From a virus (Duplodnaviria > Heunggongvirae > Uroviricota > Caudoviricetes), in the IMG/VR virus record IMGVR_UViG_3300023038_000160: a stretch of 13,247 nt of DNA; one strand, written 5' to 3'. The position numbers were made by a program, and so were the translations under genes. This document shows, in pieces, positions 99 through 11,749 of this stretch. Numbering within the stretch: position 1 is the stretch's first letter; each line of letters opens with the position of its first letter. The notes under the pieces are model-generated. The model searched no databases. It was given only the letters and a program-made list of their open reading frames with translations, and was not told the DNA's origin.

Positions 99-703
99 TC
101 AAGAAAATCAATAACTTAGCTTAACTTCTCTAAGAAATTGTATCTTCTGTTATCACTTACAAACGCCTATACGTTGTTATGGGCTTTGGTAGTGTAACAC
201 GTATGGGCGAGTAGTTCCCAGGCTCAACCTCGTAACAAGTTCCTTTGAAGCTGGAAGACGTGCCACCGTCTCTAAACCTTCTACCAAAACTCTTAGCAAG
301 ATGTTCCACACCTGGCGCGGTGTCCAATGATGCTACACGTCGTGAGACGTTGCAGAGGATAAACAGGCTAAATGATGGGAAGAGTTTTAAGTGCAATAGT
401 GGATTAAAGCCCACCTCTTCAAAACCTAACTTGATCGGGAAAGAATCAAGCTCTAGCACGGTTTCGTCCACCGGAGTACAACGGGTGCCTGATAAGAGAA
501 GAACTGCTAAGACTTCATAGCTTTTGTGAAAAAGCCCTTTTTAGTGGATACGCCTACGGCGCTTATTTTTTGGTATAACCATCAAAGGCGCTTTATGGCT
601 CCTATTGTCTTGAAAATGTATCTTTACTTGTATTGTGTTTTATGCGTAGTCTCCCTGTGTAGTATGTAACTTGTTAATTTTCATATGAATACAGAGGCAC
701 ACG

Positions 704-856
704 ATGAAAAACATTGCAGCTATCAAACGTAATAACCGCAAGATTCACGCTCGTAAGTTCCTGTCTACGCCAGAGGGAAAAGCCTGGCTAGAACGTAAAC
801 AGCGAGAGAACGAAGAAAGAAAACTCCTTAGTGAGTTGAAATGGCTTAAGGATTGA
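704..856 (+). CDS. Small basic hypothetical protein (50 aa; MKNIAAIKRNNRKIHARKFLSTPEGKAWLERKQRENEERKLLSELKWLKD)
   Basis: ATG with GAGG 9 nt upstream; below the 60-aa cutoff of the ORF track; ends 14 nt before a palindromic hairpin. Lys/Arg-rich, possibly nucleic-acid binding. Confidence 0.3.
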   Translation: MKNIAAIKRNNRKIHARKFLSTPEGKAWLERKQRENEERKLLSELKWLKD

Positions 857-869
857 ATCACCAGTAGGC

Positions 870-905
870 GCATAACACATCCAGCGATCAAAGATGTGTT
901 TATGC
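870..905. terminator. Palindromic hairpin between convergent small ORFs (GCATAACACATC ... GATGTGTTTATGC)
   Basis: 12-bp near-perfect inverted repeat with 11-nt loop; no strong T-tract, so it may be a bidirectional terminator or a protein-binding palindrome. The arm resembles the GCATTACACA motif family seen further downstream. Confidence 0.35.
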
Positions 906-922
906 ACCTGATAGTGAAATTA

Positions 923-1081
923 TTAAAGTCGTTTAGTTAACATCGCCATTGCTTGAGCAATAATTGCAACAGCGTCCATCTCTTCACTGGAAGCGATGCA
1001 AATGCGGTAACTAATAGCCACAACGAATACATCAATAACGAGAAAGTGAATAGTGTGAAGATGTTTTGAAAGTAAATGCAT
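923..1081 (-). CDS. Small hydrophobic hypothetical protein (52 aa; MHLLSKHLHTIHFLVIDVFVVAISYRICIASSEEMDAVAIIAQAMAMLTKRL), probably single-pass membrane
   Basis: Minus-strand ATG at 1081 preceded by GGAGG with 5-nt spacing; central ~20-aa hydrophobic stretch; not in the ORF track because under 60 aa. Preferred over the track ORF 937..1146, which is in another frame and lacks an RBS. Confidence 0.3.
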   Translation of the reverse strand: MHLLSKHLHTIHFLVIDVFVVAISYRICIASSEEMDAVAIIAQAMAMLTKRL

Positions 1082-1475
1082 AACTTCCTCCGGTTTGTAG
1101 ATAGGAGGATTAGAACACGCATTAAATGATGTTGCAACAATGGCAATTTACCCTAATAGTCTACTATTCACCTCAATCTACGTCAACCAATATTTGATGT
1201 AGATTTAATTTTCTTTTAAAAACAATATGTTGCTATTTGTTGGGTTTTGGAGTTAGGTTGTTTTTTGGACGTTTCCATCAAGTGTAAAGATACGTCTAGC
1301 CTTCATAGTGAGTTCAGTTACTGTCTTTTTCTCTGAAATCGGCGCAAACGTGATCATCGCTTGAGGTTGCTGCTCTTACTTCTCAAATTGTGATGGAGAA
1401 CGATAAAGGTTAGAGGGCACTTTTATTTTTTTAAGCAAGTGTATAGCATAAGAATAATCTAAAAAGGGAGGTTAT

Positions 1476-2027
1476 ATGCGCAGGTCTGCATTTGTGAGGA
1501 TGATGATTTTTACAACGTTGTTTGTAGGGGGAGCTTCTACCGCAGTTGCTAAAAACTGCAAAAAAGGAATACCTTGTGGTAACTCGTGTATAGCTGTTGG
1601 TAAGACGTGCCGGATTGGCTCTTATGCCCCTTCATCTTATAAAAATCATTCATACTCTTATCCTTCATCCTCTATTCGAAGCTCGCAATCAAATAATTCA
1701 CGAAAAACTGAAGGAGTGAAAACGACTCCTGCTGCCAAAAATTATCTTTGCCAATACTCTATTGCATCAATCGAAAACGGACGTTTAGGGGCATTACGTG
1801 TTCAGGGATACGCACAAGTAACTTTATATGCAGATAGCTTCAAGGCTAACAGATTAAATGGAACATATTTGATATCGCCAAAACTGTATGCTAACGGCAA
1901 GTTTATGATGGCAGATGATAAAAGCAAGGTTTATGCTTATGATTCTTGGCTATTAAATTTTGCAATAAGCGATCGTATCACAAGAACGACAGAACAATGG
2001 GATCGATGTAAGCTCAATCAAAAATAA
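1476..2027 (+). CDS. Secreted cysteine-rich hypothetical protein (183 aa) with predicted Sec signal peptide
   Basis: Strong RBS (AAAAAGGGAGG 6 nt before ATG); N-terminus MRRSAFVRMMIFTTLFVGGASTAVA is a basic n-region, hydrophobic core and AxA cleavage motif; mature part starts with C-x4-C-x3-C-x6-C and has two more Cys near the C-terminus; followed by an 8-bp stem hairpin. No family recognised by eye. Confidence 0.6.
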   Translation: MRRSAFVRMMIFTTLFVGGASTAVAKNCKKGIPCGNSCIAVGKTCRIGSYAPSSYKNHSYSYPSSSIRSSQSNNSRKTEGVKTTPAAKNYLCQYSIASIENGRLGALRVQGYAQVTLYADSFKANRLNGTYLISPKLYANGKFMMADDKSKVYAYDSWLLNFAISDRITRTTEQWDRCKLNQK

Positions 2028-2045
2028 CAGTTAGAGAAGCTCTTG

Positions 2046-2105
2046 TAGAGGCATTATTGAGTTATTGGTTTTAATATTTTTGTGCCTCTATGGGCTTTTT
2101 TTGCC
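2046..2105 (+). terminator. Putative intrinsic terminator after the secreted-protein gene
   Basis: Perfect 8-bp inverted repeat TAGAGGCA (2046-2053) / TGCCTCTA (2083-2090) followed by GGGCTTTTTTTGCCTTTTT; the loop is long and AT-rich, so efficiency is uncertain. Confidence 0.35.
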
Positions 2106-2787
2106 TTTTTGCAATGTAGGAGAGAGCACAGGAATCGTTAAAATTAATTATTGGGGTATTTAAGGTTATTTTCAGGTGATTTAAGGGTATTAAACTTGAT
2201 TTAATTGGTTAAAATATAAACAGATAGTTCTGTATCTTATTGATTTATAAGGTTATTTTTAAATAAAGGTAAATAAAAAATAAATAGCTATAAATACATC
2301 TTAATACCTATATCCCTTCCCTTATGGCTAGATTGCGAGAGGTGCTTAACGCGATTTTCAGCGCCCCCCGATCTGGAAAATCCAGAATCCCCAAATATCA
2401 GCAAGGAATTTCTTGCACAATCAACATCGTTTTTACCTATTAAATCATTACACAGAAAGCCTTTCTGTAATGCCTCTCACTAAACTTTCACTAAACACGA
2501 GAATGATCGGTTTTATGTCGGATCTGATGCTAGAAACAGCACCACGTCTCACAAGGGCTGTAAGCGATGAAACCAGTGTTTATGCGGGTGCGGGTCAAAA
2601 TATAGGCCAAAATCCATTTAACATAATAATCATAATATGCACTAAGGAACACATAGAACGCCTTGAATTGATGTATCATGGGAAAAGTGATGGATTTTTT
2701 ACGTAGGAGCACGAGAGGGCTTCTGTTTACTTTTGTGTGCTATGAAATATAATTAAAGGTTTTTTTGTTTTTATTGTGTGAAGTGGT

Positions 2788-3230
2788 GGATTACACAGGG
2801 GAATAGATTAAATGGTGTTCTGTTTATACAGGTTTATTTGTTAGATCAACAATTTGGCATTTCTAAACAGATGTTTGAACGTTGCCAAATGTCTTGACAA
2901 CACAAGAAAAGGGCTTGCTATGCCACGCATTACACGAAATAAGGCTGTAAAAACAAAATAAATTTTAAAATTTGCACAAACGAGAAAACTCGTTCAGAAA
3001 CAAGCAGAACAATTTTTAGCCAACAATTTCTGATGGTGTGCTGTAAGCCGCATTACACAAGGCTTTGCGAAAGTGATGTAAAAGTGAAGAAAGTAAGAAT
3101 TGCACTTTTAAGCTACTTTTTCATTGAATTTTTAGTATGGAATTACACAGGAATAAGTTAGGGATATTCTATGATTTACACAGGGAATATAGGGGGATTA
3201 TGGCACACACATAGAAAGGCATTACACAGG
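2788..3230 (+). repeat. Array of same-orientation motif copies, consensus G(C/A)ATTACACAGG(G)
   Basis: Copies at 2790-2799, 3142-3151, 3221-3230 (exact ATTACACAGG) and variants at 2929-2937, 3052-3062, 3174-3185; further variants outside this span at 4353-4364 and 4435-4444. Three copies extend to ...CAGGG(G)AAT. Irregular spacing, all on the + strand. Confidence 0.6.
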
Positions 3231-3276
3231 GTGAGTGCTATGTGACAAATGGATGTAACGGTAGGTCATAGTGAGC

Positions 3277-3416
3277 TACCCCCTATCAAGTCTAACAGGG
3301 GTTTATAAAGAATAATAAACCGATGATACCCCTATCAATATTGATACCCCTATTAACTTTGATATGACTACCCCTATCAAGTCTGATACCCCTACCCCTA
3401 TCAAAACTGATACCCG
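3277..3416 (+). repeat. Iteron cluster, core (G/C)(A/T)TACCCCTATCAA, candidate replication origin
   Basis: Direct repeats at 3277-3294, 3325-3338, 3343-3356, 3368-3380, 3385-3404 and a partial copy at 3409-3416, spaced 18-24 bp (about two helical turns), immediately followed by a very AT-rich tract (3417-3490) that could act as a DNA unwinding element. Confidence 0.65.
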
Positions 3417-3489
3417 ATAAGAATAAGTTAATAAGAATAATTAAATAATAATTAAATAATATTCTTTATATCTATATATATATGATTTT

Positions 3490-3660
3490 TTGCCTTCCGG
3501 CGTTAGCTTCACTCTCTGGCAAGCAGCCTTACTCCGCTACCTTTCGGGCTACGTTGGCTGGCCCCGTTCCGCTCACACCGAAAGCAAAGCGTTACTTTCT
3601 TCGTGTAACTATCGTTGGCGGTAACGCCCACGAAGAAATACTATTGCGCTATGCGCAGTA
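3490..3660. other. GC-rich structured patch inside the AT-rich noncoding region; candidate cos/pac-like packaging site, primosome site or structured ncRNA
   Basis: Sharp local rise in GC; nested hairpin TTCTTCGTG(3596-3604)...CACGAAGAA(3633-3641) with inner CGTT/AACG stem; motifs CCGTTCCGCTC and GTTACTTTCTTCGTGTAACT resemble, from memory, the terminase-binding R elements and adjacent sequence of lambda cosB. Not verified by alignment. Confidence 0.3.
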
Positions 3661-3722
3661 AGAGTAATCACCTAACCAATCATACTGATTGCTTATGTGT
3701 TAACTCTATCTCTCTACCTCTT

Positions 3723-3880
3723 AATTCCACTTCCTACATTCTGTAGTTGTGTAATTACTCGAAGAGAGAGCGGCTAAAGCTCAATTACACTCTGCTTTCC
3801 TCGTGTAATTTCACTAAGCCTCAATACAATTCCACTTCCTACATTTAATAACTCTCGTTATTCTCTGTAGTTGTGTAATT
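3723..3880 (+). repeat. Split direct repeat: AATTCCACTTCCTACATT x2 and CTGTAGTTGTGTAATT x2
   Basis: 18-mer at 3723-3740 and 3828-3845; 16-mer at 3741-3756 and 3865-3880; the two halves are adjacent in copy 1 and separated by a 19-bp insert in copy 2. GTGTAATT also occurs at 3809-3816 and, inverted, at 3782-3789. Confidence 0.55.
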
Positions 3881-4509
3881 GTTTTCGGTGGAAAAGCCAG
3901 AGGCGACACCGAAAGAGAATTCTGATCTTATTAATCTTATCTATCTTAGTTATCTTACTTACTTATCTTACTTTATCTACTTTATTATTAATAATAGCTT
4001 TATAAGCTCTATGTAGCTCTCTGACGCAAGAAACAGAGTTCAGGAAGGGAATCACCTTAGAAAAGTGTTCTTTGCGTCATAATGTGTTTTATGAAGGATT
4101 CAGAGGTGTTTCATAACAGGAATGTATAGAGGATACTTTAGGTAATTAAAAATAAGGGGTCTAAATGCTTCTCTAACAGCATTAAGCAGGGTAGAGAATG
4201 GAAACGCATTGCCTACACATATAAGCTCACTACAGAGCTTTACATAGCGTTTTATAAAGTGACTCTCTATCTTATATCTACAATCACCTTTTCATATACC
4301 TAACAAATACAAAATAAGCCCCTTAAATAAGCCTCTGGCGAGCTAAACAGCCATTACATAAGGGAATGTATTGCTTTTATCAAAATCTCGTTAGAACGCG
4401 TTTTAGAGCGTTTTAGACAATAATGAAGAATAGCACTACACAGGAGAGCACGAATTGTTAAGCAAAAATGTAAGTGCATGAAAAAGATCAGTTTTTTTGT
4501 GAAAAGGTA

Positions 4510-4538
4510 TTGACAAATGTTTCTTTATATGTAATAAT
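4510..4538 (+). promoter_or_regulatory. Sigma70-type promoter for the regulator/replication operon
   Basis: TTGACA (4510-4515), 17-bp spacer, AATAAT (4533-4538) with extended -10 TG at 4530-4531; a ~100-nt leader containing a short hairpin and T-run precedes the first gene. Confidence 0.5.
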
Positions 4539-4648
4539 AGGTATTAGAGGGACAGAAAACATTCTTCTCTAAATAATCAAAATCAATGCACTTTGAAGCC
4601 GTCAGGCTTGCAAGGTGTTTTTTCTTTTAACTGAATAAGGAGTTTTTT

Positions 4649-4837
4649 ATGAAATGGTTCACATCTGAGCACGTCGTTCAGGCATTTAAAAAAGGTGAGT
4701 TATCTCGCCACCAAGTAGTAATGAATCGTAATATGGCAAGGAGTCGAGGTTATCCAGAGCGAGCTGCTTGCTTCAATGAAGCACTCAAGATTATTGATGA
4801 ACTAAGAAAAAATGAAAAAGAATCTGAAACAGAGTAA
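4649..4837 (+). CDS. Small putative DNA-binding regulator (62 aa)
   Basis: Strong RBS AAGGAG 7 nt upstream; first gene after the promoter; basic helical segment LSRHQVVMNRNMARSRG. Family not recognised. Confidence 0.5.
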   Translation: MKWFTSEHVVQAFKKGELSRHQVVMNRNMARSRGYPERAACFNEALKIIDELRKNEKESETE

Positions 4838-6039: not shown

Positions 6040-6168
6040 AATCTCTCTATGTAATTAAAATATAAAAGGAAAACATTATTATGATAGTAGCTATGTATTG
6101 GTTATTGTTCTTTCTCACGTTAGAAACATATTTCGGGGTGTTTTCCTTTAAAAGAAAAGGAAAGGTAA

Positions 6169-6576
6169 ATGGCAAAAAGAAAAAACAACGTTGTTAAGAA
6201 AATAGGGGATTCAGCTTCTCTTCTAAGTAAACCTAAATCTATTCTAAGACGCAAAGACTTTAAAGAGCTAGTAACGCTCACCAAGCATAATAGCGCCCCT
6301 GGCGAATGGAAAACAGAGATCATAGAACATTCTCCCTCTGTGCCTTGTGGAGATGAATTTAACGCATTACAAGAAATCTTATCTTCAACACCTGGTGTAT
6401 TCTGGAAACCTAGAAAAAGAAAAGAGTATATTGTTGATAGCTCTGATTTACGCAAATACCAGATTTTAGGATTTGAAGACTATAACCACTACGTCGGTTA
6501 TCTCGCCACCAATGGCCTAAATAATTTAGTTCCTGAATTCCAAATTTTAGATAATGCTGATTATGGAGACTTTTAA
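6169..6576 (+). CDS. Hypothetical protein (135 aa), basic N-terminus
   Basis: RBS AAAGGAAAGG 4-5 nt before ATG; operon context; no family recognised. Confidence 0.5.
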   Translation: MAKRKNNVVKKIGDSASLLSKPKSILRRKDFKELVTLTKHNSAPGEWKTEIIEHSPSVPCGDEFNALQEILSSTPGVFWKPRKRKEYIVDSSDLRKYQILGFEDYNHYVGYLATNGLNNLVPEFQILDNADYGDF

Positions 6577-6577
6577 T

Positions 6578-6916
6578 ATGAACAAAAACACGTATGACAC
6601 AATTTATTCACTAATTAATTATTATGAGGATGATTACCTCCTGCCTTTAAACCGCGCTGAACTTGATGCATATAAAGAAAACACTCCAGCGGCACTAAAT
6701 GAGGCGTTTAAACACTGGGATTTAGCTGTGAATGCCTTTGAGCACCTCTTTAAGCGTGTAGAGATGCTCTGTAAGCGCGAAAACGCATATCTGACAGCGG
6801 ATCAGATATGGGAGTTATCAAACTGGATAGAAGATATTGAATCTGATGTTCGCTATGTAGGAGACGGACTTGTTGAACTAGCTCAACGCTTAGGCGCTAC
6901 TATCACAGAAGAATAA
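6578..6916 (+). CDS. Acidic helical hypothetical protein (112 aa from the ATG at 6578)
   Basis: GGAG 9 nt upstream of the ATG at 6578; the upstream ATGs at 6554 and 6563 lack an SD and overlap the previous gene. No family recognised. Confidence 0.45.
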   Translation: MNKNTYDTIYSLINYYEDDYLLPLNRAELDAYKENTPAALNEAFKHWDLAVNAFEHLFKRVEMLCKRENAYLTADQIWELSNWIEDIESDVRYVGDGLVELAQRLGATITEE

Positions 6917-6946
6917 AAAAAAGCAACAAAAAAGTTGTAAAATATC

Positions 6947-6975
6947 TTGACATTTCATATATTGTATGTTAGTAT
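6947..6975 (+). promoter_or_regulatory. Sigma70-type promoter with extended -10, driving a noncoding unit
   Basis: TTGACA (6947-6952), 17-bp spacer, TAGTAT (6970-6975), TG at 6967-6968. Confidence 0.5.
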
Positions 6976-6979
6976 AATT

Positions 6980-7187
6980 ATATGGGGTGATTATTTTTCC
7001 TTTATTGGTTCGATATTAAAAATTCTTCTTGTCGTTAAAGGGGAGTAAAATCTCCGCTCCCCGCTTCTCCTCCTTAAGTAAATACTGTGTCATTATTACC
7101 TCTTTTTTCCTTTGTTATGCATACATCTTGGAGTGTGCATAACATAGGGTAATTACAAAGGCGGCTTTAAATGCTGCCTTTTATTTT
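6980..7187 (+). ncRNA. Candidate ~200-nt structured noncoding RNA or regulatory leader between promoter and terminator
   Basis: No ORF beyond M-G-stop; alternative hairpins GGGGAG...CTCCCC (7040-7062); perfect 9-bp inverted repeat TGTTATGCA (7113-7121) / TGCATAACA (7136-7144); terminated by the hairpin at 7160-7178 plus T-tract. Confidence 0.3.
7157..7187 (+). terminator. Rho-independent terminator
   Basis: Stem GGCGGC (7160-7165) / GCTGCC (7173-7178) with one G-U pair, 7-nt loop, then TTTTATTTT (7179-7187). Confidence 0.55.
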
Positions 7188-7249
7188 GCCCGTTATGCAA
7201 CTTAAAAGTTGTATTTCTTACTTTAAACAAGGTAACAAGGTTTATATAA

Positions 7250-7462
7250 ATGTTGTTCTTAAATGATAAAGAGCAAATCATCAAGTATAAAGATGAAATG
7301 CTGCGAATTAATCCACAAATTACCGAAATGGTAGCTAAATACGCTGGGTGTTCTGTCGAAGAAGTAGAACGATGTGTTGAAAAATATTTTTCTCCTTCTT
7401 CTCCGTCTACACCTTCCCTTAATGAATTAATCAAATTAAAAGCTAAGGAGATTACTAAATGA
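7250..7462 (+). CDS. Hypothetical protein (70 aa), first gene of the head-like module
   Basis: ORF with weak SD; stop overlaps the next start (ATGA at 7459-7462), implying translational coupling; a 6-bp palindrome CAACTT-AA-AAGTTG lies just upstream. Confidence 0.4.
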   Translation: MLFLNDKEQIIKYKDEMLRINPQITEMVAKYAGCSVEEVERCVEKYFSPSSPSTPSLNELIKLKAKEITK

Positions 7463-7821
7463 TTATTGATTTAGACACTCTATTTCCAGTTCGAAAGACT
7501 TTCACAGATATTGTAAGTTATTGTACTGATCCGTTTGCCTCTGTAGAAAACAAGGTTTTTGCTTCTCTTCCTGCTGATGTTGAGTGCGGAGACTTGATCA
7601 CCAGCACGGGCGCTAAATATGAATCAGGAGATGATATCTATGTTGTTATGAGTGAATTTGTAACGGCTGGAGAAAACAAGCCTGTAGATGTGCTACGTGC
7701 TAATGCTGGTCTTGTCTGCATCAAAGCTGATGCGCTGAATGCTGTAAGTGAAGCAGCAAAAACAGCATTAATTAAAAAAGGCTTCCAGCTTGAAGGGTTC
7801 CATTCTGTTTTCACTTCTTAA
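7459..7821 (+). CDS. Hypothetical protein (120 aa) immediately upstream of the capsid gene; possible decoration or scaffold-type head protein
   Basis: AAGGAG 8 nt upstream; position is analogous to lambda D relative to E, but no convincing similarity to lambda gpD is seen by eye. Confidence 0.5.
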   Translation: MIIDLDTLFPVRKTFTDIVSYCTDPFASVENKVFASLPADVECGDLITSTGAKYESGDDIYVVMSEFVTAGENKPVDVLRANAGLVCIKADALNAVSEAAKTALIKKGFQLEGFHSVFTS

Positions 7822-7839
7822 TAAAAGGAATAATAATAA

Positions 7840-8868
7840 ATGATTCTAGGTAATGATTACGTTGATTTAGCTCCTCTGTTCTCTGCGCATAGCACTAGAA
7901 ATTATCTACTGTCTACCCTTGACTTCACTGATCCGGTGGGCGTTAGTTCTCATAAAGTAGCTGTTTCCCAGCTTGTCGAAAGCAACGAATCTCTGTTCAA
8001 CAAAGAAACCTCTCGTTTCTCTTCTGAGCATAACGTGACTAAGCGTGAACAAGGTAAAGAATGGCTGATCGAAATCCCGTATTTTCTTCGTGAAGATGTG
8101 ATTCGTCCTTCTGATGTTCAAGGCAAACGTAAACCTGGCACTGATTTTCAGGAAACACTCACTGATATTTATGCTGAGTATGTTGCTAAACATCACGTAG
8201 CGTATCAGCGTACAAAAGAGAGCGTATTGGCTGCATCTCTGTTTAGTGGTCGCACCTACACGCCTAAAACTGATGATGTTCTTATCGAGTGGGGCAAGCT
8301 GTTTAACGTATCAGCTATGAAAGCCACTGTGAACGCTTCCAGCACTGACACCACGAAGATTTTTAAAGAATTTGATCAGATTGCTACTGACATTATCGAG
8401 AAAGCACAAAGCCAGGCGGCTGCTGTAGAGCGTATTGTTGTTTTCTGTAAGCCGGAAGCCTTCTCTGCAATTCGATTCTCTGCGGGTATGGCAAACGCAT
8501 TCCAGTATGTAAGCCCACTGGAAGAGGGAAATGTTGTGTATCAGCGTCGTGACCTGCTACCAGGGGTGACAGCGTTCACTATTCCAGGAACTAACATTGA
8601 TGTTATTAAACTGGTAGATCCGCTACACCTTGCACATATGACTTCTGATGCGGTTGCGGTTCCGAAGTTTGCTAAAGGCTCTAATGTATATCAGAACATC
8701 TACGGGGCTGCTTCCAGCACCTTTGAACTGATTAATTCCGCTCCTGCTGAGGTGTACAGCTATAGCTATGAATCTTCTCGTGGTGATGCTGTTAACGTTG
8801 TTACAGAGAATAGCCAGATGGTTGTAAACCACGGCGTTGGCTTCTCCGTTCAAATCACTGTAAAATAA
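7840..8868 (+). CDS. Putative major capsid protein, lambda gpE-like (342 aa)
   Basis: RBS AAGGA; length matches lambda E (341 aa); by-eye matches to the recalled lambda E sequence: RIVVFCKPEAFSAIRF vs IIVFDPKGWALFRSF, LAASLFSGRTYT vs SAVLKGKYT, FELINSAP vs FTMIQSAP, and a C-terminal FSVQ vs FVSVQ; followed by a strong terminator. Confidence 0.6.
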   Translation: MILGNDYVDLAPLFSAHSTRNYLLSTLDFTDPVGVSSHKVAVSQLVESNESLFNKETSRFSSEHNVTKREQGKEWLIEIPYFLREDVIRPSDVQGKRKPGTDFQETLTDIYAEYVAKHHVAYQRTKESVLAASLFSGRTYTPKTDDVLIEWGKLFNVSAMKATVNASSTDTTKIFKEFDQIATDIIEKAQSQAAAVERIVVFCKPEAFSAIRFSAGMANAFQYVSPLEEGNVVYQRRDLLPGVTAFTIPGTNIDVIKLVDPLHLAHMTSDAVAVPKFAKGSNVYQNIYGAASSTFELINSAPAEVYSYSYESSRGDAVNVVTENSQMVVNHGVGFSVQITVK

Positions 8869-8886
8869 TATTTTAACGTGTAATAG

Positions 8887-8932
8887 AGGCGTGGCGTGAA
8901 TAACACGCTTCGCCTTTTTTTATTTATTTTTT
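8887..8932 (+). terminator. Strong Rho-independent terminator after the capsid gene
   Basis: AGGCG-tgg-CGTG aataa CACG-ctt-CGCCT stem-loop followed by TTTTTTTATTTATTTTTT. Confidence 0.7.
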
Positions 8933-8955
8933 AAATTTTGAGAGGTGATTAAAAT

Positions 8956-9159
8956 ATGGAAGTGATTCTGAAATCAAAAAATGGTGTACACGTACATTTA
9001 GATGCTAATGATTCTAGAGGCTTGTTAAATCTGAAATATCTATGTTCTCTCCTAGATGTTCCATATGAAGGAGTAAAAGCCCGTATGTTCAGACTAAACG
9101 AGAGTATTGATCAGGCTCTACACCATTTCTTAAGTAAAGAAGGTGGTAAAAATGATTAA
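8956..9159 (+). CDS. Hypothetical protein (67 aa)
   Basis: RBS GAGAGGTGA before ATG; no family recognised. Confidence 0.45.
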   Translation: MEVILKSKNGVHVHLDANDSRGLLNLKYLCSLLDVPYEGVKARMFRLNESIDQALHHFLSKEGGKND

Positions 9160-9174
9160 TAAGGGGGATTTTAA

Positions 9175-11001
9175 ATGTTAGAAATTAACACTTCTAAAAT
9201 TAAGAATACAGTAACATTTAGTGTAGATAAAGACAGCTTAAAAAAAACGAAAGACTCTATTACAGGCTTAAAGGAATTTGCAGAAAACATCAAGCCAGCT
9301 AAATTAAGGTTTGATAGTGTCACTAAAGGCTATAAGAAAGCACAAAGCGAAGTAGACAAGATTGCTCAACAGAAAGCTAAAACAGAAAAACAGAATCAAA
9401 GAGCACAAGCTGCCGCAGCAAGAGCACAGGCAAGGCAACAGGCACAAATAGCAGCACGTAAAGAGAAAGCAGAATTAAAACTTCTCGATGTGTCAAGCTC
9501 TATCAGTGCAATGCACCGTCTCTCTGTAGCGGAACAATACAAAGCTATTGCACAGGCTAGAGAGATAGCAAAACAATATGAGCAAGGCGCTATCTCGCTT
9601 GCACGTATGAATAGCCAGATGAAACGCTTACAACAACAACAACGTAAGATTAATGGCAACAGAAAAGCTCAATTTGCCCCCGTTAAGGGAGGATCAGGGA
9701 ATTCCGCCACTATGGGCGCTCTGTTATTTGGAGGCGCTACGGCTGCTGCTGGCGTGATGGCTGTTAGTAAAACCTCTGAATTTATGGCTAATAGCTTTGC
9801 GAATGCTGAAACACAAGGAGAATTAATCCAACGTGCAAGGCTTGGCGGTGTAGACGTTAACCAGATGTACAACATTACAGAATGGGCGTATAGAAACGGC
9901 GTTGACTCTATGATGGGTGATCAAGGGGCTAGAAAATACCTGGATCAGATGAAAGATGTTAGGGAACGTGCCGCAAAATCCTACAGTGAAGCTGAATTGG
10001 TGAAAGACAAGAAAGGAAAATCTGAATGGAAAGGCGGTGATAACGGTATTAATGAACTTCTAAACATCGGTGTTATTAACAAAAGCGACCTTAAAAAATT
10101 TGCTGATAATCCGGCTGGATTAATTTCTAAGGCTGTTAATGGAATGATGAAAAAAGGGTTTTCAGACTCCCAAATTGGACAACGTTTAGAAGACCTGGGC
10201 GATGATTTGATGCTTACATCAAAATATTGGCAACGTTCCGTTAAAGATGTACAAGAAAGTATTAATCAGCAAAAAGCCTCTGGAAAATGGCTAACAGAAA
10301 CACAGCAAGACTCTATTGTTAAATTCAGAGAACTAAACAGACAGCTTTCACAGCTTTCTGATGCAAGACAAGTAGCATTTGTAGACGGCTTTATGAAATC
10401 TCTCGATCCAAAAGTAACGGAAGAGTTTATGAAAAACCTTTCTAATCTCACTCCGTATTTTACGAAGCTTGGAGAAGCTACAGGAAGTCTCTTTGAAGCC
10501 ATTATGAAGATTGTAAACTGGTTTAATCGTAATGATGATAAGACAGATGCTATTCAGAAAAATATGGGAGATGCACCGCCATTAAGCAATGAAGGAATGA
10601 AACAGAATCTTTCTAACCTCGTTCCTGACCAATATAAAGGCGCTGGCACTGCAACAACTACACCTGATAATACTCATTCCATCTTTAACACAATTAAGGG
10701 ATGGCTTTTCGATGATAATTCTTCTGTGTCAGATGTAAAAATGTCAGTCAGCGAAGCACCGATAACCAATCTCAAACAGGGTGCTTTAAATAATCTTGCA
10801 ATGACAACTCCGGCTTATAATTTATCTCCTGTGTTTAATCTGAATCCTACATTTGAAGTGGTAACAGAGGTTCCTCTTACTATTAATTCTGACACATCAA
10901 GATTAAGCGATTATGTGGATTTTACAGCGAGAGCAAGTCGGGATAGCTTCTTGAAATCATTAACATTAACCAGCTTATCAGGACAATCTAACGGCGGGTA
11001 A
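9175..11001 (+). CDS. Large coiled-coil protein with Gly/Ala-rich hydrophobic segment (608 aa); candidate scaffold, tape-measure-like or ejection-type virion protein
   Basis: RBS AAGGGGGA; N-terminal ~170 aa rich in Q/A/K/R (AQQKAKTEKQNQRAQAAAARAQARQQAQIAARKEKAELK), then GGSGNSATMGALLFGGATAAAGVMAV (~9697-9775), then an S/T/N-rich C-terminal part. Function inferred from composition only. Confidence 0.55.
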   Translation: MLEINTSKIKNTVTFSVDKDSLKKTKDSITGLKEFAENIKPAKLRFDSVTKGYKKAQSEVDKIAQQKAKTEKQNQRAQAAAARAQARQQAQIAARKEKAELKLLDVSSSISAMHRLSVAEQYKAIAQAREIAKQYEQGAISLARMNSQMKRLQQQQRKINGNRKAQFAPVKGGSGNSATMGALLFGGATAAAGVMAVSKTSEFMANSFANAETQGELIQRARLGGVDVNQMYNITEWAYRNGVDSMMGDQGARKYLDQMKDVRERAAKSYSEAELVKDKKGKSEWKGGDNGINELLNIGVINKSDLKKFADNPAGLISKAVNGMMKKGFSDSQIGQRLEDLGDDLMLTSKYWQRSVKDVQESINQQKASGKWLTETQQDSIVKFRELNRQLSQLSDARQVAFVDGFMKSLDPKVTEEFMKNLSNLTPYFTKLGEATGSLFEAIMKIVNWFNRNDDKTDAIQKNMGDAPPLSNEGMKQNLSNLVPDQYKGAGTATTTPDNTHSIFNTIKGWLFDDNSSVSDVKMSVSEAPITNLKQGALNNLAMTTPAYNLSPVFNLNPTFEVVTEVPLTINSDTSRLSDYVDFTARASRDSFLKSLTLTSLSGQSNGG

Positions 11002-11035
11002 TTCCCGCCATAACATTACAAGGAAAATTATTATT

Positions 11036-11749
11036 ATGGCGACCGCCGGGATTTTAACCATACGTGCAGCAAATACTCCAGAACAACACGTTCAGGCTGT
11101 TTACAAAGCAGAACAAGATATAAACTCTACAAAAAACGAAAATAGCAAAGCTAATAAAACAAAAGGAGAAAATGGGTTTGCTATTGTTACCAGTGGCTTG
11201 GCATCTTCTGGCAATGACGTTTATGAAAATTATATGGCACTGGCCTTTGACAGTGTTGACGATGTGAACGTGAGACGTTCGGCAGATGTTACAAGCTACC
11301 CCGTAGAAAATGGTGCTACTGTGTCTGATCACGTTCAAATTAAAAACAATAAGTTTTCTCTTAAAGGAAGGATCACTGAAACACCGATTAAAAGCGATCC
11401 TGGCTTGTTAAAGAGTGCAGGGGTGAACGGGAACAGAAGATCATTAGCTATCGACTACCTGAATCAGATTATGGACAGTAGACAGCCTTTTCTTCTTGTT
11501 ACAGAAAATAAAACTTTTGAGAACGTTGTTTTAACAGGAATCGAATACACAGAAGAGGCAAGCGAATCCCTGGTATTTGATCTTAGCTTTGAGCAAATAA
11601 GATTAGTTTCTTATGGCACTGTGAACACTGTAGCTATCAAAACACAGCCATCTAAGAACATCGGGGCTAATATGAAAAAACGTGTTAACACTGAAAAATC
11701 AAGTAGTGAAGGTGAAGACACTATTACTCCTGCCTTTAAACAGGAATAG
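11036..11749 (+). CDS. Hypothetical protein (237 aa), possible virion-associated protein
   Basis: RBS AAGGAAAA; same operon as the 608-aa gene; no family recognised. Confidence 0.5.
   Translation: MATAGILTIRAANTPEQHVQAVYKAEQDINSTKNENSKANKTKGENGFAIVTSGLASSGNDVYENYMALAFDSVDDVNVRRSADVTSYPVENGATVSDHVQIKNNKFSLKGRITETPIKSDPGLLKSAGVNGNRRSLAIDYLNQIMDSRQPFLLVTENKTFENVVLTGIEYTEEASESLVFDLSFEQIRLVSYGTVNTVAIKTQPSKNIGANMKKRVNTEKSSSEGEDTITPAFKQE

Follow-up and report, generated by a model that had tools for sequence, protein, structure and literature searches.

A conserved promoter-to-terminator noncoding unit ahead of the structural genes of a satellite-like island in Escherichia coli

The 333-nucleotide (nt) gap between the early and late genes of the viral sequence IMGVR_UViG_3300023038_000160 (IMG/VR; Caudoviricetes) carries a noncoding unit that extends from a sigma-70-like promoter at position 6947 to an intrinsic terminator ending at 7187. 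The whole stretch of DNA analyzed, 13,247 nt in length, is termed the window, and the coordinates of its features are collected in Table 1. From left to right, the window holds about 4.5 kilobases (kb) that are poor in open reading frames (ORFs), an early operon, the gap with the noncoding unit, the late genes, and an integrase gene on the opposite strand at the right end. The unit is conserved in related islands and was previously unannotated. When E. coli records were inspected, annotation of the gap covered only the flanking hypothetical proteins.

Table 1. Features of the noncoding unit and of the operons on either side, in window coordinates
Feature	Coordinates	Strand	Details
Early-operon sister unit	4510..4628	+	Promoter TTGACA-17-TGTAATAAT, 5' hairpin, intrinsic terminator 4588-4618 followed by a U run; first early gene at 4649
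Palindrome O1	6924..6937		CAACAAAAAAGTTG; centred at about -51.5 from the predicted start; 9 nt upstream of the -35 hexamer
Sigma-70 promoter	6947..6975	+	-35 TTGACA 6947-6952, 17-nt spacer, TG 6967-6968, -10 TAGTAT 6970-6975
Predicted noncoding transcript	6982..7187	+	About 206 nt; start placed 7 nt past the -10 hexamer; 5' end (A)UGGGGUGAUUAU
Predicted helix P1	6984..7102	+	GGGGUGAU (6984-6991) pairs with AUUACCUC (7095-7102) and closes a multiloop; pair probabilities 0.80-0.99
Predicted hairpin W1	7040..7062	+	GGGGAGU (7040-7046) / GCUCCCC (7056-7062), 9-nt loop; pair probability 0.94-0.99
Anti-Shine-Dalgarno-like motif	7069..7078	+	CCUCCUUAAG; inside the longest unpaired stretch (7063-7094); most of the motif unpaired at >0.8
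Predicted hairpin W3	7109..7148	+	Core 7113-7124 / 7133-7144, preceded by the UUUUUCCUUUGUU tract; pair probability at least 0.97
Intrinsic terminator	7157..7187	+	Stem AAAGGCGGC / GCUGCCUUU (7157-7181), 9 pairs, then UAUUUU
Palindrome O2	7198..7211		CAACTTAAAAGTTG; 10 nt past the terminator U tract; 52 nt before the first late-gene ATG
Late operon	7250..11749	+	70-aa, 120-aa, major capsid (7840-8868), 67-aa, 608-aa tape-measure-like and Dit-like genes (aa, amino acids); Pfam and PHROG matches

The noncoding unit and its predicted RNA

The promoter has 10 of 12 matches to consensus together with the TG of an extended -10 element. Only one other site in the window, at 4510, fits this description, and most E. 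coli copies carry TAATAT at the -10 position, which is better than the TAGTAT of the window. Additional -10-like hexamers are present in the initial transcribed region (GATTAT, 6990-6995), as is common in AT-rich DNA. The terminator (-13.7 kcal/mol, z score -3.8) ranks top in the terminator scan of the window. A preliminary description of this sequence had predicted a near-consensus promoter with an extended -10 element, a Rho-independent terminator downstream, and the lack of an ORF between them, and each of these features was borne out. The only plus-strand ORFs that start inside the predicted transcript are of 37 aa (TTG start) and 21 aa (GTG start), and the 37-aa frame is broken by 1-nt indels in E. 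coli variants. An additional 33-aa ORF (TTG start, 6947-7048) begins at the -35 hexamer, and so its start would not be transcribed from this promoter. No conserved small ORF is found in the window RNA or in eight longer relatives described below, and the proposal that the unit encodes a small protein was rejected for this reason.

Promoter-like and terminator-like matches are no more common in the window than in shuffled sequences (36 versus 35.7 and 14 versus 10, respectively), and the unit region is no better conserved within E. coli than its flanks. Both observations are what one would expect of a functionless pair that arose by chance in AT-rich intergenic DNA. However, in 13 related loci, drawn from about ten genera, the pair occupies the equivalent position, and this places it above chance. 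The unit persists across genera at capsid identities of 38-79%, its folds have strongly negative z scores, and its relatives exhibit covariation. A chance origin is already contradicted by these comparative data, and we give it almost no credence.

The gap sequence is found in 307 of 5426 complete E. coli genomes (5.7%) at 90-99% identity. Among the variants aligned, those at 90-94% identity, which include L004, L008, L023, and others, have 17 additional nt (ATAGGTACAAGTTAATA) inserted at 7150-7157, past hairpin W3 and ahead of the terminator. This identity class is the majority (256 of the 307 genomes), and the window allele, which lacks the insertion, is the minority form.

The predicted transcript is highly structured. 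When folded as a whole (approximately 6983-7190), it reaches -61 kcal/mol with a z score of -5.25, and none of 200 shuffled sequences folds as well. Helix P1 is a prediction that receives no compensatory support from E. coli variants. One of its two stable hairpins is W3 (-21.3 kcal/mol, z score -6.5), whose 12-pair stem, counting flanking pairs, is built on a perfect 9-base-pair inverted repeat (7113-7121 with 7136-7144) that had already been recognized in the preliminary description. Hairpin W1 (-12.2 kcal/mol, z score -3.0) shares bases with a nested GGAG/CUCC alternative (7042-7045 with 7052-7055), and the two were originally proposed to be mutually exclusive structures. The base sharing is real, but a genuine switch between the two is not supported, because the four-pair alternative reaches only -4.0 kcal/mol versus -10.8 kcal/mol and is predicted to be occupied at about 0.01, compared to 0.98 for W1. 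The sole direct repeat in 6947-7187 is a 13-nt U/C tract whose copies are 110 nt apart, and this region includes no tandem repeats.

The longest unpaired stretch of the RNA exposes the sequence CCUCCUUAAG, which resembles the 3' end of 16S rRNA. Its general form, YCUCCU(U)A(A)G, is present in RNAs of five subfamilies, often in hairpin loops, at a density of 0.71 per kb compared to 0.013 per kb in the surrounding 396 kb, which is a 56-fold enrichment. The RNA also carries features typical of Hfq-dependent enterobacterial small RNAs (sRNAs), specifically an intrinsic terminator with a U tail and accessible seed regions. Small RNAs of this type also bind Hfq or ProQ and have defined mRNA targets, and within the island no significant target of the RNA was identified. 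Searches of the window and 11 related loci against Rfam 15 with gathering and permissive thresholds matched only tRNA. Among sub-threshold matches, the best in 6850-7300 has an E value of at least 0.84, and nothing credible is present at 7700-8420 of the related locus L028.

Related RNAs in enterobacterial islands

Homologues of the capsid protein were traced at 79, 72, ~62, 56, and 38% identity to loci in E. coli, Buttiauxella, Kluyvera, Scandinavium, Citrobacter, Enterobacter, Cronobacter, Klebsiella, and Serratia. These relatives keep the gene order, and each locus has an ORF-free gap of approximately 560-1000 nt directly before the operon for the 70-aa, 120-aa, and capsid proteins. In all 13 relatives the gap opens right past the upstream stop codon with a promoter, mostly TTGACA, 17 nt, TGT, and a -10 hexamer, which is followed by an A/T-rich stretch and then a GGG(G)U start. 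Likewise, all 13 have an intrinsic terminator at the equivalent place, ending 28-127 nt before the first late ATG. Terminator hairpins across the 14 loci (the window and its 13 relatives) range from -10 to -23 kcal/mol.

The window shares each of these hallmarks, including the location between the 135-aa gene region and the 70-aa, 120-aa, capsid operon, the TTGACA-17-TGn-10 promoter, the (A)GGG(G)U start, and the terminator. By these sequence comparisons, an unannotated family of structured RNAs occupies this position in enterobacterial islands, and the predicted window RNA (206 nt, versus 362-932 nt in the relatives) is probably its shortest form. The original proposal of an sRNA or regulatory leader identified the right class of element, namely a conserved promoter-to-terminator noncoding unit directly ahead of structural genes. 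The preliminary description made no mention of the conserved family, the leader-terminator of the early operon, the palindromes that bracket the unit, or the anti-Shine-Dalgarno-like motif.

Eight of the long forms, each about 550 nt, align at 53-86% identity and exhibit a mosaic pattern wherein hairpins are swapped for other sequences that still form pairs. For these eight RNAs, RNAalifold predicts 100 base pairs, of which 39 have changes on both sides. The structure keeps 91.7% of cells paired, compared to 81.5% in column shuffles and 41-51% with slid partners. The count of pairs changed on both sides averages 24.2 in shuffles, none of 500 shuffles reaches 39, and all five measures exceed those of all 500 shuffles, where the covariation rests on eight related sequences and the tested structure was derived from the same eight.

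The promoter and the first ~15 nt of the window RNA align locally with the long forms (score of 37-38 versus a shuffle maximum of 28). Farther downstream, short motifs are collinear: a U/C tract (UUCUUCUUGUCGUU in the window, UUUUCCUUUGUURUG in the long forms) is followed by a G-rich hairpin and then by CCCCGC..UCUCCUC. In the window the two sequence motifs flank W1 and correspond in order to those on either side of the big hairpin in the long forms. The tract TTTTCCTTTGTTRTG before W3 is likewise common to the window RNA and the long forms.

Control of the late operon

Two palindromes, O1 and O2, bracket the unit and are the only CAAC-N6-GTTG sites in the window, where 0.18 would be expected. 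Across 13 loci, 15 of the 23 sites with the sequence YAAC-N6-GTTR fall in the promoter or post-terminator zone. Their density in these two flanking zones is 8.1 per kb versus 0.045 per kb elsewhere, a difference of about 180 fold. Some of these sites have their centre at -51.5 and some over the promoter core, at -17.5 to -19.5, whereas others precede the late ATG by 32-55 nt. The possibility that the post-terminator palindrome serves as an RNA hairpin was rejected because the fold is weak (z score -1.0; consensus -1.8 kcal/mol), and O2 is therefore more likely to be a DNA site. This arrangement fits a candidate dimeric DNA-binding regulator that might bracket the RNA gene. In addition, three copies of GTTATGCA/TGCATAAC are located around the second hairpin and past the terminator (7113-7200), and one is in the promoter spacer of an Enterobacter relative (L038, 7705-7712). 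This sequence may be a further candidate half-site for protein binding.

Two palindromes of the same type placed 274 base pairs apart at the border of the replication and structural modules, where pac or cos sites often lie, might also indicate that the element acts as DNA. The region could be a packaging site, an origin, or a looped operator set by the palindromes, wherein transcription is incidental or merely activating. However, the phase of the palindromes relative to the promoter is fixed (-17.5 or -51.5), which points to transcription control, and the spacing between them is shifted by 17 base pairs in most E. coli copies. A DNA site would also leave the RNA-level covariation of the relatives unexplained. 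A replication origin at the unit was rejected, since the likely origin lies elsewhere, at an iteron array and AT-rich block (3280-3461). We consider a mainly DNA-level role quite improbable.

No sigma-70-like promoter was identified between the terminator and the late operon (7250) in the window or in the four relatives scanned. Upstream of the unit, only 30 nt separate the stop codon of the early operon from the -35 hexamer, and this interval carries no terminator. Thus, the terminator at 7157-7187 should stop the early-operon transcript and the transcript initiated at 6947 alike.

The early operon is preceded by a sister unit of similar layout, whose terminator hairpin has 13 pairs. This leader is conserved among E. 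coli, Enterobacter, and Klebsiella relatives (L025, L032, L034, and L038), where the changes in its stem are compensatory, and the initial transcribed sequence TATAGGGTAA(A)G recurs at early and late promoters across different loci. A layout in which two strong promoters each meet a terminator ahead of the first gene is that of elements under termination and antitermination control, as in phages lambda and P4.

Alternative structures ahead of the late genes had originally been put forward as the basis of antitermination or attenuation control. This mechanism is disfavored, as the terminator stem (pair probabilities 0.83-1.0) has no competitor: the only candidate, CCUUUG/CAAAGG, has a probability of ~0, and W1 and its GGAG/CUCC alternative (~0.01) are 95 nt away from the terminator. 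Thus, the antiterminator fold that defines structure-switching attenuator and riboswitch leaders is not found here. An RNA-switch attenuator is unlikely both for this reason and because the 17-nt insertion beside the terminator is the majority allele in E. coli. Since no fold competes with the terminator, read-through should need a factor.

The explanation that we favor, with about even confidence, is that the unit is a terminated leader that gates the late operon, that read-through is factor-dependent, and that the RNA body has a function of its own. The extended -10 sigma-70 promoter right past the upstream stop codon would produce a structured, pyrimidine-rich noncoding RNA of ~206 nt. The terminator would be the sole barrier between two strong promoters (4510 and 6947) and a capsid/tail-like operon that itself has no recognisable promoter. 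In the resting island, transcription would stop at 7187 and the short RNA might accumulate. The late genes would then be expressed only when RNA polymerase reads through, presumably by the action of a trans-acting factor of the processive antitermination type that could come from the island itself or from an infecting helper phage. Further control, at the promoter or as a roadblock, is probably exerted by a protein that binds the palindromes O1 and O2. As for the RNA body, it is likely to be more than a spacer, and the exposed CCUCCUUAAG is the best candidate for a functional site.

Several considerations weigh against this explanation and temper our enthusiasm for it. The capsid and tape-measure-like proteins have their best phage matches among large lytic myophages, and a helper of this kind could use a promoter invisible to a sigma-70 scan to transcribe the late operon. 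A simple gate has no need of a strongly conserved, covarying RNA body. The palindromes O1 and O2 suggest that the promoter may be under repression and not constitutive. The window RNA and the long forms are putative homologues on the strength of the promoter, the 5' end, and the short collinear motifs. Finally, the proteins of the island do not reveal an antiterminator. The small proteins have no Pfam, NCBIfam, PADLOC, or PDB match above threshold and include no antiterminator homologue, and the AlphaFold model of the 135-aa protein is of low confidence (predicted local distance difference test score of 51), giving no lead to such a factor.

The main rival is a stand-alone trans-acting RNA, either of the immunity type or an sRNA that occludes Shine-Dalgarno (SD) sequences. 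In this case the terminator would do no more than mark where the RNA gene ends. Enterobacterial sRNAs usually end in a terminator with a U tail. Under this proposal, transcription of the late operon would be a separate event, driven for instance by a polymerase or sigma factor that the helper specifies, and the RNA would act through the exposed CCUCCUUAAG and its U/C-rich tracts on island, helper, or host mRNAs. A body that is conserved and covarying in the relatives would be expected of such an RNA, as would an anti-SD-like motif that is enriched and unpaired, and the likely helper class of lytic myophages is compatible with this view. Moreover, in the long forms it is the pyrimidine tract that pairs best with the ribosome-binding region ahead of the first late gene. 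However, in a 12 x 12 matrix of RNAs and ribosome-binding regions, the window RNA with its own late region (-10.9 kcal/mol) is the weakest of the 12. Its duplexes with 14 translation-initiation regions of the island or with the early leader are no better than those of shuffled sequences. The longest exact complement of the window RNA within the window is 11 nt, which is at chance level, and among 50,697 phage records no enterobacterial phage has a sequence similar or complementary to the unit. No promoter candidate is present downstream of the terminator to serve the late operon. We view a stand-alone RNA as possible but less likely.

A different form of cis control is known from phage HK022, where put is a compact two-stem element that suppresses termination. 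If the 5' part of the RNA acted in this manner by modifying its own polymerase, only transcripts started at 6947 would pass the terminator, read-in from the early operon would be blocked, and control would reside at the promoter through O1 and O2. The relatives have a conserved 5' end with a stem-loop right past the start, the palindromes cover the promoter core at -17.5 in five loci in the manner of a repressor operator, and no terminator separates the upstream operon from the unit. Like put, the RNA here is a promoter-proximal structure upstream of terminators in a phage operon, and no alternative fold is needed. However, the RNA resembles neither put RNAs nor any Rfam family, O1 of the window is located at -51.5 and thus outside the core promoter, and a large and variable body of 206-932 nt is a misfit with a compact polymerase-binding element. 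Suppression of its own terminator by the RNA would be hypothetical. Accordingly, a put-like function seems improbable to us.

The island, its likely helper, and known systems

The window opens with a tRNA-Thr(CGU) gene (23-98), and exact copies of its capsid protein are encoded in E. coli contigs between proA/thrW and paoD/paoC. Thus, the window represents an island of ~12 kb with 38% GC at the tRNA-Thr gene thrW of E. coli. Our literature search uncovered no paper on this island, its proteins, or an RNA at thrW, and one paper on tail-assembly interference proved to be unrelated.

Positions 100-4600 form a region of ~4.5 kb with very few plausible ORFs. In strain E2865 (NZ_AP018808), which carries the island, RefSeq annotates a single 52-aa gene in the equivalent region. 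Repeat families occur at 3721-3880 and as a tandem ATCTTATTT array at 3925-3988. At 3280-3461 there are five iteron-like repeats of the form TACCCCTATCAA(N4)TGA followed by an AT-rich block, and these repeats are also present in a Citrobacter relative (L031). The array and the adjoining block are probably the replication origin of the island.

The early operon codes for proteins of 62 and 71 aa, an HTH_36 replication-initiator-like protein, and proteins of 92, 135, and 120 aa. The exact 16-mer GTTATCTCGCCACCAA occurs at 4699-4714, in the 62-aa ORF, and at 6497-6512, in the 135-aa ORF. An identical 16-mer present twice within 7 kb would seem too long for chance. The 135-aa protein (6169-6576) has a basic N-terminus and is the sole non-structural protein kept in all 12 relatives tested. 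It belongs to a group of 387 clusters, mostly from Klebsiella, and has no Pfam or PDB match. The ribosome-binding region of its gene (AAAAGGAAAGG, within 6120-6170) is preceded by its own complement, UUUUCCUUU, and the two are predicted to form a local hairpin that sequesters the SD sequence. The U/C motif involved is the same as that in the noncoding RNA. Overall, sequence searches of the neighbouring proteins against Pfam, NCBIfam, PADLOC, and PDB were empty or sub-threshold and gave no lead to an antiterminator or a repressor.

The major capsid protein belongs to Phage_cap_E. Together, the capsid and tape-measure-like proteins are nearest to those of E. coli myophages with genomes of ~145-150 kb (22% and 34% identity, respectively), including phiWec188/190 and phages annotated under Phapecoctavirus and Justusliebigvirus. 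For this reason, the helper may be a large lytic phage. The island carries no portal, terminase, or protease genes. These characteristics suggest that it is a satellite of large lytic phages of a type that has not been described.

The unit might work most like the lambda pR'-6S RNA-tR' late switch, though it is not a member of that group. In lambda, Q antitermination operates the switch, and in Shiga-toxin phages the locus yields an sRNA as a by-product. Both arrangements have a strong promoter right after an upstream gene, an intrinsic terminator within a few hundred nt that ends a noncoding transcript of ~200 nt, and promoter-less late structural genes directly downstream, and in both the short RNA would accumulate when the element is silent. 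Unlike in the lambda locus, no Q-family gene was detected immediately upstream, where the 120-aa and 135-aa proteins are without Pfam, NCBIfam, or PDB matches. The RNA body here is a conserved structured family of 206-932 nt bracketed by palindromes, and a lytic myophage, not a lambdoid phage, would be the likely helper.

Type III toxin-antitoxin loci such as ToxIN are composed of a promoter, a noncoding RNA, a terminator that sets the RNA:protein ratio, and protein genes. The same order of promoter, RNA, intrinsic terminator, and protein genes is observed here as in ToxIN and avcID. However, the downstream genes are capsid/tail-like and yield no PADLOC match, and a type III antitoxin RNA was rejected given the absence of tandem repeats in 6947-7187.

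The CI RNA of satellite P4 and the C4 RNAs of P1 and P7 are immunity RNAs encoded in the leader upstream of the genes that they silence. An RNA of this kind had been suggested for the present locus. The position in a leader, silencing by premature termination, and constitutive promoters with transcripts that are cut short are all reminiscent of these systems. However, the complementarity between RNA and target in the same transcript that defines them was sought here and not found. There is no significant complementarity to island leaders or ribosome-binding regions, no Rfam match (including to C4/CI-type RNAs), and no sequence similarity. The original suggestion is thus not supported, although an immunity RNA that acts on other targets is conceivable.

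These immunity RNAs are also cited in a report on the PLE satellites of Vibrio cholerae, wherein an inter-inverted-repeat (IIR) noncoding transcript is the most abundant satellite transcript (PMC7567579). The function of the IIR transcript is unknown, repeats with inverted symmetry flank it, and it has antisense homology to PLE leaders (PMC7567579). The unit described here would likewise be a repeat-flanked noncoding RNA of a satellite of a lytic myophage, to the extent that the likely helper class is correct. However, the two have no sequence relation, antisense homology to leaders was not seen here, and the published account does not present the PLE RNA as a gate ahead of structural genes (PMC7567579).

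A broader and more speculative view, to which we assign a low probability, is that the islands constitute an unrecognised satellite family of large lytic enterobacterial myophages and that the RNA of 200-930 nt is an active part of helper exploitation. As a riboregulator, the RNA could sense infection by the helper and open the late operon in response. Alternatively, it could be an abundant mimic of the 16S rRNA 3' end that uses CCUCCUUAAG to titrate SD sequences or a helper or host factor, and thereby reprograms translation in the course of infection.

With this unit, E. coli, Klebsiella, and their relatives would gain an unannotated family of structured RNAs. It points to termination-based control, with early and late operons both gated by leader terminators, in satellite-like islands that fit no described type. 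A reporter placed behind the terminator would provide a handle on the trigger of the island. If the helper is a large lytic myophage, the islands would be an enterobacterial counterpart of the Vibrio PLE-ICP1 system.

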